NCBI RefSeq assembly: GCF_024223415.1
Contig: NZ_CP100500.1
Length of the DNA: 64,000 nucleotides
DNA from: Escherichia coli
GTDB taxonomy: Bacteria; Pseudomonadota; Gammaproteobacteria; Enterobacterales; Enterobacteriaceae
Reading direction: 5' to 3' (one strand)
In this document: in pieces, positions 55,141 through 56,625 of the stretch
Numbering within the stretch: the first letter of the stretch is position 1
Layout: the number at the start of each line of letters is the position of its first letter
Program-made: the position numbers and the translations under genes
Notes under the pieces: generated by a model
The model's database searches: none
What the model was told of the DNA's origin: nothing
The model's input: only the letters and a program-made list of their open reading frames with translations

Positions 55141-55818
55141 ATGTCAGAAATTGCCCTGAGTCTTAATGATGTTCATGTTGTTTATACCAGAAGCAGACAG
55201 GTCGTGTTACAGGGTTTTTCAATGTCCGTTCATAAAGGTGAACTTGTATGTCTGCTTGGCGTTTCAGGTTGTGGAAAAACAACCGTATTACGAACTGTAG
55301 CAGGCCTGGAACGATTACAACAAGGTGAAATATTCATATCACAACGCTGTGTAGCCGGAGCCGGAATTCATCTCCCCCCGGAAAAGCGCAGGGTCGGAAT
55401 GGTCTTTCAGGAATATGCTCTGTTTCCCCACCTGACAGTAACACAAAATGTAGCCTTTGGTCTGCGCCATCTGCCTTATGAACTACAGCATGCCAGAGTC
55501 ACTGAACTTCTGAAAATGGTTGAATTATTATCCTGTGCAAAGCGCTATCCTCATGAACTCTCAGGTGGACAGCAACAACGTATTGCACTTGCCAGAGCAC
55601 TGGCCCCGGCCCCTGATATTTTGTTACTGGATGAGCCATTTTCCAGTCTGGATAAACAAACCAGTGAATACCTAGTGAAAGAAGTACGGGACCTGTTACG
55701 TAGTTCAGGTCAGACAGCCCTGATCGTTACTCATAATGAATCAGAAGCACTCGAAATATCAAACCGTATTTGTATCATGACGGAGGGTAATATAAGTTCG
55801 GTTCAGTCTGTGGTCTGA
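55141..55818 (+). CDS. afuC: ABC transporter ATP-binding protein, AfuC-like, lacking C-terminal regulatory domain
   Basis: Walker A GVSGCGKTT, signature LSGGQQQR, Walker B LLLDEP; only 225 aa. Confidence 0.6.
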   Translation: MSEIALSLNDVHVVYTRSRQVVLQGFSMSVHKGELVCLLGVSGCGKTTVLRTVAGLERLQQGEIFISQRCVAGAGIHLPPEKRRVGMVFQEYALFPHLTVTQNVAFGLRHLPYELQHARVTELLKMVELLSCAKRYPHELSGGQQQRIALARALAPAPDILLLDEPFSSLDKQTSEYLVKEVRDLLRSSGQTALIVTHNESEALEISNRICIMTEGNISSVQSVV

Positions 55819-56625
55819 GACGTAACCGCACATTCAGGATCCCCTGTTCGTCATGGAAGCTGTATTATGTAACTATATGGAGGCATAGCAGATATTGTTG
55901 AAGAAATACATCAAAAACACTCACATTTCTGGTACAACAGGAGTTGTAGATTTAATGATTATTGGGACGAAGTTACTACAGAAAAGCTGTACCGGGAACA
56001 GGTATGGTAGTTCCTTGTCACGTGTGGATTAAATGAGCATAATGCAGATCAATTACAAAAGGCATTTCGTAATAGCTCTGTTGTTGATTCGGTTACCATG
56101 ATGGCTGTGGCAAGAGCCACCATGTGACTATACATGATATAATTATTTGTGTGATGTTGTTATACCTGAACAACAGGCATGAGATAATGGAAAAAATTAT
56201 ACATATAACTCGGCTTTCCCATACTCCACTACAGAACAGTATATGATTCTGAACATTTCAATCTAGGCGCATTACATAACTATATTACATGTAACTATCT
56301 GGCCCTCAAATCATCGAGAGAATTGTTTAAAGTCAGCAGTCATAATCTGAATATAGATCATTATCACATAATTTAATTCTTAATTCACTACATTTTCCCT
56401 TGAATCCGGTATAATAAGACAGAGCACATGGCTGATGCTTTGTTTCGGTGTGGATAATCTGGTGGCGTCGGCTATGTGCTCTCAACAGTTAACTTATTAT
56501 GAATACTATTATCAATACAGGTTTTACATAAAAAATAAAAAGCATCTCCTGATATCAGCCCAGTCTCTTTGGGCTAACCAGAATTATACATAAGCTATGC
56601 AGATATTAATTTGCATACAAAACCA

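Follow-up and report, generated by a model that had tools for sequence, protein, structure and literature searches.

The ThiBPQ thiamine importer of E. coli is built from a binding protein, a fused double permease of ~540-560 aa, and a short ATPase that has no C-terminal regulatory domain; this ATPase, ThiQ (~232 aa), is functional. The ATPases FbpC/AfuC, CysA, PotA, and PhnT/PhnT2 are longer (340-378 aa) and carry a C-terminal regulatory domain. We analyzed a 64,000-nucleotide stretch of an Escherichia coli chromosome (the window), in which a 225-aa ABC ATPase closes a three-gene importer cassette and is followed by AT-rich DNA. A sequence-only reading had called this ATPase AfuC-like and unusually short, and had suggested that the DNA behind it was a deletion scar or held decayed genes at an island boundary. 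Our results make it very probable that the ATPase is an intact part of its importer cassette and that the gap is a seam within the island, composed of a decayed N-acetyltransferase (GNAT) gene and a non-coding rest. The features concerned are as follows:

52404-53453, + strand: periplasmic solute-binding protein, first gene of the cassette (Pfam SBP_bac_6, E 7e-15)
53437-55125, + strand: fused double permease of 562 aa, second gene of the cassette (two BPD_transp_1 stretches)
55141-55818, + strand: ABC ATPase of 225 aa, nucleotide-binding domain only, last gene of the cassette (ABC_tran, motifs, and family length)
55819-55954, + strand: ancestral spacer of 136 bp between ATPase and GNAT (alignment with L008 and L016)
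55955-56293, + strand: GNAT family N-acetyltransferase pseudogene, firm to ~56240 and tentative to 56293 (blastn, tblastn, and codon walk)
56294-56625, no strand: AT-rich non-coding DNA without assignment (GC 0.345), in which the DUF1097 operon has its untranslated 3' end
56421-56482, + strand: isolated hairpin of 62 nt with 18-nt arms and a 26-nt loop (inverted-repeat search)
56626-57108, - strand: DUF1097 membrane protein, last gene of a convergent module (Pfam DUF1097, E 3.5e-19)

The ATPase has a single Pfam domain, ABC_tran (PF00005; residues 23-167, E 2e-34), which it matches with 119.5 bits against a gathering cutoff of 25, placing it in that family. It contains Walker A, Q-loop, LSGGQ signature, Walker B, D-loop, and H-loop, and none of the residues that form them (GVSGCGKTT, Q90, LSGGQQQR, LLLDEP, SSLD, and H198) varies among 13 aligned homologues, in agreement with the sequence-only reading, which had reported every nucleotide-binding motif and no C-terminal domain. 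The gene has a GC content of 0.45 and is labeled by PGAP as an intact "ABC transporter ATP-binding protein". Matches to long relatives covered positions 16-216 of 353 in the PhnT2 model (E 2e-74), 18-228 of 378 in the PotA model (E 4e-69), 31-225 of 355 in CysA (PDB 1z47; E 3e-59), 13-219 of 359 in FbpC (PDB 3fvq; E 2e-53), and 17-218 of 351 in the ferric ATPase model. Since these alignments are confined to the N-terminal ~215-228 residues of the long proteins, the ATPase lacks the regulatory domain, and it lacks all of it (alignments with FbpC/AfuC, CysA, PotA, and PhnT/PhnT2 end at ~216-228). The protein stops 9 residues past the invariant G216, and no TOBE hit was found in it by Pfam.

The cassette has the same operon architecture as ThiBPQ, and two ThiQ models (TIGR01277 and PRK10771; 213 and 234 positions) align end to end with the ATPase, over residues 22-222 and 7-219 (E 1e-47 and 2.5e-45). 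However, the ATPase is a member of neither, scoring 162.4 bits against a cutoff of 245 and 154.7 bits against one of 298, and its nucleotide-binding domain is nearer to the PhnT2, PotA, and CysA group (251 bits) than to ThiQ. The ATPase is thus like ThiQ in architecture without being its orthologue. ThiQ serves as an example that a short ATPase of such design can work, and among curated equivalog models short forms are represented by ThiQ and by GlnQ (240 positions).

The best matches for the nucleotide-binding domain were FbpC/AfuC, CysA, PotA, and PhnT/PhnT2, and the other two cassette genes are similar to those for binding proteins and fused permeases of PhnS2/PhnU2 and Fbp/Afu type. The permease could be aligned from end to end with the PhnU2 fused-permease model (546 positions) but scored below its cutoff, while the binding protein gave weak, sub-cutoff NCBIfam matches to PhnS, PhnS2, and sfuA-type models and only E 1e-5 against thiB; its matches thus fall partly on phosphonate models and partly on thiamine/iron-type ones, in every case far below cutoff. 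The ATPase in turn missed the equivalog cutoffs of PhnT2 (251 vs. 458 bits) and of the FbpC/AfuC ferric ATPase (NCBIfam NF008513/PRK11432; 195.9 vs. 496 bits), and it is without the TOBE-like C-terminal domain of FbpC/AfuC. Since no equivalog cutoff was reached by ATPase, permease, or binding protein, the label "AfuC-like" stands as a description of the nucleotide-binding domain and fails as a family assignment, and iron is not established as the substrate. The value of this is chiefly corrective: the subfamily is widespread and loosely annotated as iron(III)/FbpC, and here the AfuC/iron label is backed by no curated cutoff.

Transport activity, substrate, and lack of regulation are inferred here. 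The ATPase would be the energy subunit of a binding-protein-dependent ABC importer, with two copies docking on the fused permease and hydrolyzing ATP for uptake, and without a regulatory domain it would escape control of the kind known for MalK, ModC, and MetN.

The ATPase is not a truncated protein. In a search of 5.8 billion proteins, ~90 homologues of less than 96% identity among the matches listed measured 203-268 aa, mostly 216-240, and none reached 300 aa. Their hosts span at least eight genera, including Buttiauxella, Citrobacter, Salmonella (S. diarizonae), Rahnella, Providencia, Brenneria, Xenorhabdus, Edwardsiella, and the betaproteobacterial Variovorax. In the genera named here other than Edwardsiella, the homologues at 57-75% identity all measure 216-240 aa. 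The C-termini of the 13 aligned homologues coincide, lying 5-18 residues past the invariant G216. Since equal length and coincident C-termini are found throughout the clade, the lack of a regulatory domain is a family trait, and the ATPase has every mark of a conserved short-ATPase subfamily: ~216-240 aa, a coincident C-terminus, and the last place in a three-gene cassette. The gene is also under purifying selection, with a dN/dS of 0.23 relative to the 94%-identical copy at locus L002; in comparisons with Citrobacter and Buttiauxella, pS was 0.78-0.84 (saturated) and pN 0.20. The short length is therefore the norm of a conserved, selected subfamily, and there has been no truncation. The sequence-only reading had proposed an alignment with full-length FbpC/AfuC and had itself named common short homologues as the observation that would speak against it; such homologues are indeed common. 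A short ABC ATPase beside empty-looking DNA is easily taken for a truncated one, but in this case it is the short form that has been conserved under selection.

The order of binding protein, fused permease, and short ATPase is kept in L002, in Citrobacter (L003-L005), and in Buttiauxella (L006-L007). A permease of 562 aa also occurs in Citrobacter and Buttiauxella, the range across the relatives' cassettes being 551-562 aa. The surroundings of the cassette differ among these relatives, and the next, unrelated gene begins 3-35 bp past the ATPase stop. In L002, homology to the window (94%) covers 51169-55809, breaking off 9 nt before the ATPase stop, and the genes past the ATPase are unrelated ones for sugar utilization. 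Upstream of the transporter lies a 168-aa ORF (51299-51805, + strand; hypothetical according to PGAP) that is co-inherited with the cassette, as the L002 homology reaches back to 51169 and includes a counterpart of 164 aa. This ORF had no NCBIfam match, and its L002 counterpart has no precomputed Pfam hit.

The gap behind the ATPase (55819-56625) is 807 bp long, has a GC content of 0.363, and ends at the stop of the convergent DUF1097 gene. Its longest complete ORF is 52 aa, so the description of ~0.8 kb of AT-rich DNA without an ORF of 60 aa or more was accurate. However, when these 807 bp were shuffled, 61% of the resulting sequences likewise had no ORF of at least 60 aa, so this absence is uninformative; what is unusual about the gap is its length between two convergent gene ends. 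PGAP places no feature in it in any of the 11 complete E. coli genomes that carry it. A six-frame Pfam scan at E up to 1 found no remnant of a TOBE or other regulatory domain, its one sub-threshold match being to DUF7244, in the spacer. An Rfam scan of 55700-56750 at E up to 10 gave only chance-level eukaryotic matches (snoU43 and XIST repeat), promoter and terminator counts in the gap were at chance (6 promoter sites vs. 5.1 expected), and a distant blastn against the plasmid collection gave no match. The gap was also compared, using blastn (word 7) and tblastx, with the sequence that follows the ATPase in L002, L003, and L006, with that following DUF1097 in L011 and L012, and with the surroundings of a Klebsiella GNAT gene (L010); no significant similarity emerged.

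A sensitive blastn of the 807 bp against complete E. coli genomes showed positions 55959-56195 to be 75% identical in DNA (E 4e-37) to a GNAT gene of five other strains. The intact protein, WP_053287820.1, is 144 aa long, lies beside sitABCD (L008), and passes the Pfam GNAT model (Acetyltransf_1, PF00583) with 46.2 bits against a cutoff of 20.7; through it, the remnant is homologous to the PF00583 family. By tblastn, residues 9-61 and 63-107 of this protein matched the gap in two frames with internal stops (E 1e-12). The search for pseudogene fragments that had been proposed for this DNA was thus fruitful by blastn and tblastn, and empty of any relevant match by six-frame Pfam; decayed genes, one of the two origins suggested for the gap, are indeed present in the form of this GNAT gene.

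The ATG of the GNAT gene is conserved at 55955, with GGAG upstream at 55940-55943. Behind it, the frame is broken by a 1-nt deletion at codon 6, a net loss of 12 nt across codons 43-54, a 1-nt insertion at codon 62, and a deletion of ~80 nt that removes codons 87-116, and four in-frame stops lie at 56008 (TAG) and at 56085, 56135, and 56180 (all TGA). The acetyl-CoA motif QQGLGYG has become QQA*DNG. With four stops and at least five frame-changing indels, the remnant has neither the open frame nor the intact Q/R-x-x-G-x-G/A motif of a functional GNAT, and its conceptual translations gave no acetyltransferase Pfam match. The stretch from 55955 to ~56240 is a dead GNAT gene; its continuation over ~56240-56293 is plausible but weak (z 3.5, 5 of 500 shuffles for the 3' part to ~56293). 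The pseudogene is unannotated by PGAP in all 11 complete carrier genomes, so its recognition is a small gain in annotation. A PhnO-like role, acetylating imported aminophosphonates, was considered for the GNAT gene and rejected as having no NCBIfam support (best matches rimI and ablB, E ~0.004). Direct repeats of 14-17 nt (55864-55880 and 56271-56302; ATTATGTAACTATATGG and ATTACATAACTATATTACATGTAACTATCTGG, with the palindrome TTACATGTAA inside) bracket the remnant; they were considered as cassette ends and dropped, and since they are missing from the homologous L008 locus, they are probably due to chance.

The link between ATPase and GNAT is ancestral. Window positions 55702-55914 matched L008 and L016 at 68% across 214 bp (E 1.5e-14), the spacer on its own reached a z of 17 against shuffles, and in L008 tblastn located a match to residues 192-210 of the ATPase, 68% identical, ahead of the intact GNAT gene. 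The sitABCD-adjacent island of other E. coli therefore has the same orientation and the same upstream spacer and ATPase 3' end as the window, and since it keeps these upstream of GNAT, the order ATPase-spacer-GNAT is ancestral. The two loci are in reciprocal states: the window has an intact cassette and a dead GNAT, whereas L008 has an intact GNAT and an ATPase cut to its last ~34 codons. These codons and the spacer, at L008:5600-5994 beside sitABCD (E. coli CFSAN061770, NZ_CP023142.1 ~4688806-4689200), are unannotated. The family of this GNAT is very small: 5.8 billion proteins contained only three clusters of it, in E. coli and as a 58%-identical Klebsiella protein, the gene of which is not beside an ABC transporter. 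In the search for an intact cassette together with an intact GNAT, scanning 100,044 species genomes for a motif found none, and a degenerate spacer motif retrieved from JGI metagenomes only identical copies of the two known arrangements; the ancestral linkage consequently rests on two partial copies. The left 60% of the gap represents what formerly adjoined the ATPase, the 136-bp spacer and a GNAT gene killed by frameshifts, four stops, and deletions.

That a recent deletion took the regulatory domain of the ATPase and left the gap as its scar is a reading invited by the closest solved and curated relatives (CysA, FbpC, PotA, and PhnT2), which are 340-378 aa long and aligned over their first ~215-228 residues only, and by the long non-coding stretch 3' of the gene. 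Yet close and distant members of the clade are equally short and share the same end, the gene is under purifying selection, the relatives' next gene abuts the ATPase stop, no TOBE remnant is found in any frame, and the DNA past the stop matches the spacer and GNAT of another island and not an ATPase C-terminus, so that we regard a deletion as very unlikely and the call of an abnormally short protein beside a scar as mistaken. The GNAT-like stretch might still be expressed in a shortened or recoded form, for example as the 45-aa ORF at 55895-56032 that spans the start, given that the ATG and the upstream GGAG are kept. With the frame gone at codon 6 and four stops following, the acetyl-CoA-binding motif destroyed, ~30 core codons deleted, and translations that match no acetyltransferase Pfam model, such expression is scarcely credible.

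The right 40% of the gap is unassignable non-coding DNA, into which the DUF1097 operon extends with its 3' end. Positions 56294-56625 had no DNA match other than identical E. coli copies in searches of complete genomes and plasmids, and no translated or profile match; compared with the DNA downstream of the intact GNAT (an IS630 fragment and an epimerase), the right part gave a z of 0.7. On the - strand, a stem with a 6-bp core (AGCCCA/UGGGCU; + strand ~56557-56575), which the MFE fold extends to 9 pairs at most, could together with a U-run 15 nt behind it end the DUF1097 transcript. The alternative that ~56400-56600 encodes an unannotated small RNA or cis-acting element draws on the 62-nt hairpin, the + strand RNA of which reaches -32.6 kcal/mol (z -4.9; none of 200 shuffles did as well) and so folds far more stably than the - strand (-18 kcal/mol, z -2.6) because of G-U pairs, and on a perfect TATAAT at 56410-56415, 6 nt upstream. 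There is, however, no acceptable -35 and the promoter sites are at chance; the hairpin matches nothing in Rfam and, since no U-run follows it, is not a canonical terminator; all copies are ~99.8% identical, with no diverged homologue from which conservation or covariation could be read; and a single hairpin chosen from 807 bp is a weak basis. We consider such an element quite improbable. We give a slim chance to a wider form of this idea, in which the last ~330 bp are a small RNA or cis-regulatory element built on the + strand hairpin, which might act as an antisense to the DUF1097 operon at its 3' end, or, more mildly, in which the cassette and GNAT once imported and acetylated a compound. 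Without a credible -35, a U-run, or a diverged homologue, the hairpin is left as an unexplained minor feature of DNA that is probably neutral. Between the window and RefSeq copies, 1601 bp (55100-56700) held only two differences. One is an SNP (56264) and the other an indel in an A-run (56530); their location, in the gap in either case, agrees with neutral drift, but two is a very small number.

Across the gap, the convergent module comprises seven genes, for a LysR regulator, a PxpA-like protein, a biotin carrier, a biotin carboxylase, PxpB-like and PxpC-like proteins, and DUF1097, with the LysR gene divergent from the rest (56626-60354 and beyond). The same seven-gene unit, ending in DUF1097, recurs at L011 and L012 in unrelated surroundings with 57-59% protein identity. 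Since the L002 homology ends near the ATPase stop and the pxp-like unit ends in DUF1097 elsewhere as well, the gap is a seam between the tail ends of two independently inherited modules inside the island. It joins the importer cassette to an independently inherited carboxylase/5-oxoprolinase-like operon in the serX island, and it illustrates how mosaic islands are assembled, with two operon modules set tail to tail and a former GNAT neighbor left decaying between them. Each of the parts is of a well-known kind, whether the ABC ATPase lacking a regulatory domain, the pseudogene of a GNAT, or the junction of modules within a mosaic, tRNA-linked island. The convergent operon is a conserved mobile unit in which components of 5-oxoprolinase-like and biotin-carboxylase type are combined. 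A paralogue of DUF1097, ycdZ, also belongs to the E. coli core genome and lies only a few kb from the serX site.

The island starts directly past tRNA-Ser(GGA) (window 37493-37580), beside ghrA, which is the serX site, a documented site of island integration in E. coli (PMC7545054). Its cargo includes CP4-44-like genes, a broken Ag43, IS66 and IS3 copies, and a YeeP-like GTPase, and its distal end is marked by a tyrosine integrase ~60 kb further on, well beyond the window, the GC content of which is 0.525. The 1.6 kb around the ATPase and gap were found at 99.9% identity in 11 of 5426 complete genomes, all of them chromosomal copies. Both flanks (51169-55809 and 56626-60354) are accessory DNA limited to these same 11 complete E. 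coli genomes, and the gap, ~18 kb from the tRNA edge, therefore lies inside the island and not at its boundary, where the sequence-only reading had put it. In its start after tRNA-Ser(GGA), its CP4-44-like genes, Ag43, and IS66/IS3 copies, and its distal integrase, the island is like other mosaic serX islands of E. coli, but its combination of cargo is rare (the 11 of 5426 complete genomes), and we found no description of it by name. In one of the 11 carriers (strain MS 119-7, NZ_CP146653.1), an IS2 element sits inside the ATPase gene at the equivalent of window ~55448 and the upstream cassette is rearranged. Since the island is present in so few genomes and the ATPase is split in one of these, the cassette is dispensable. 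Further along the island, outside the window, PGAP marks 99 bp beside IS66 debris as a C-terminal fragment of an additional ABC transporter ATP-binding protein (L014:9917-10015; NZ_CP128970.1 3308916-3309014).
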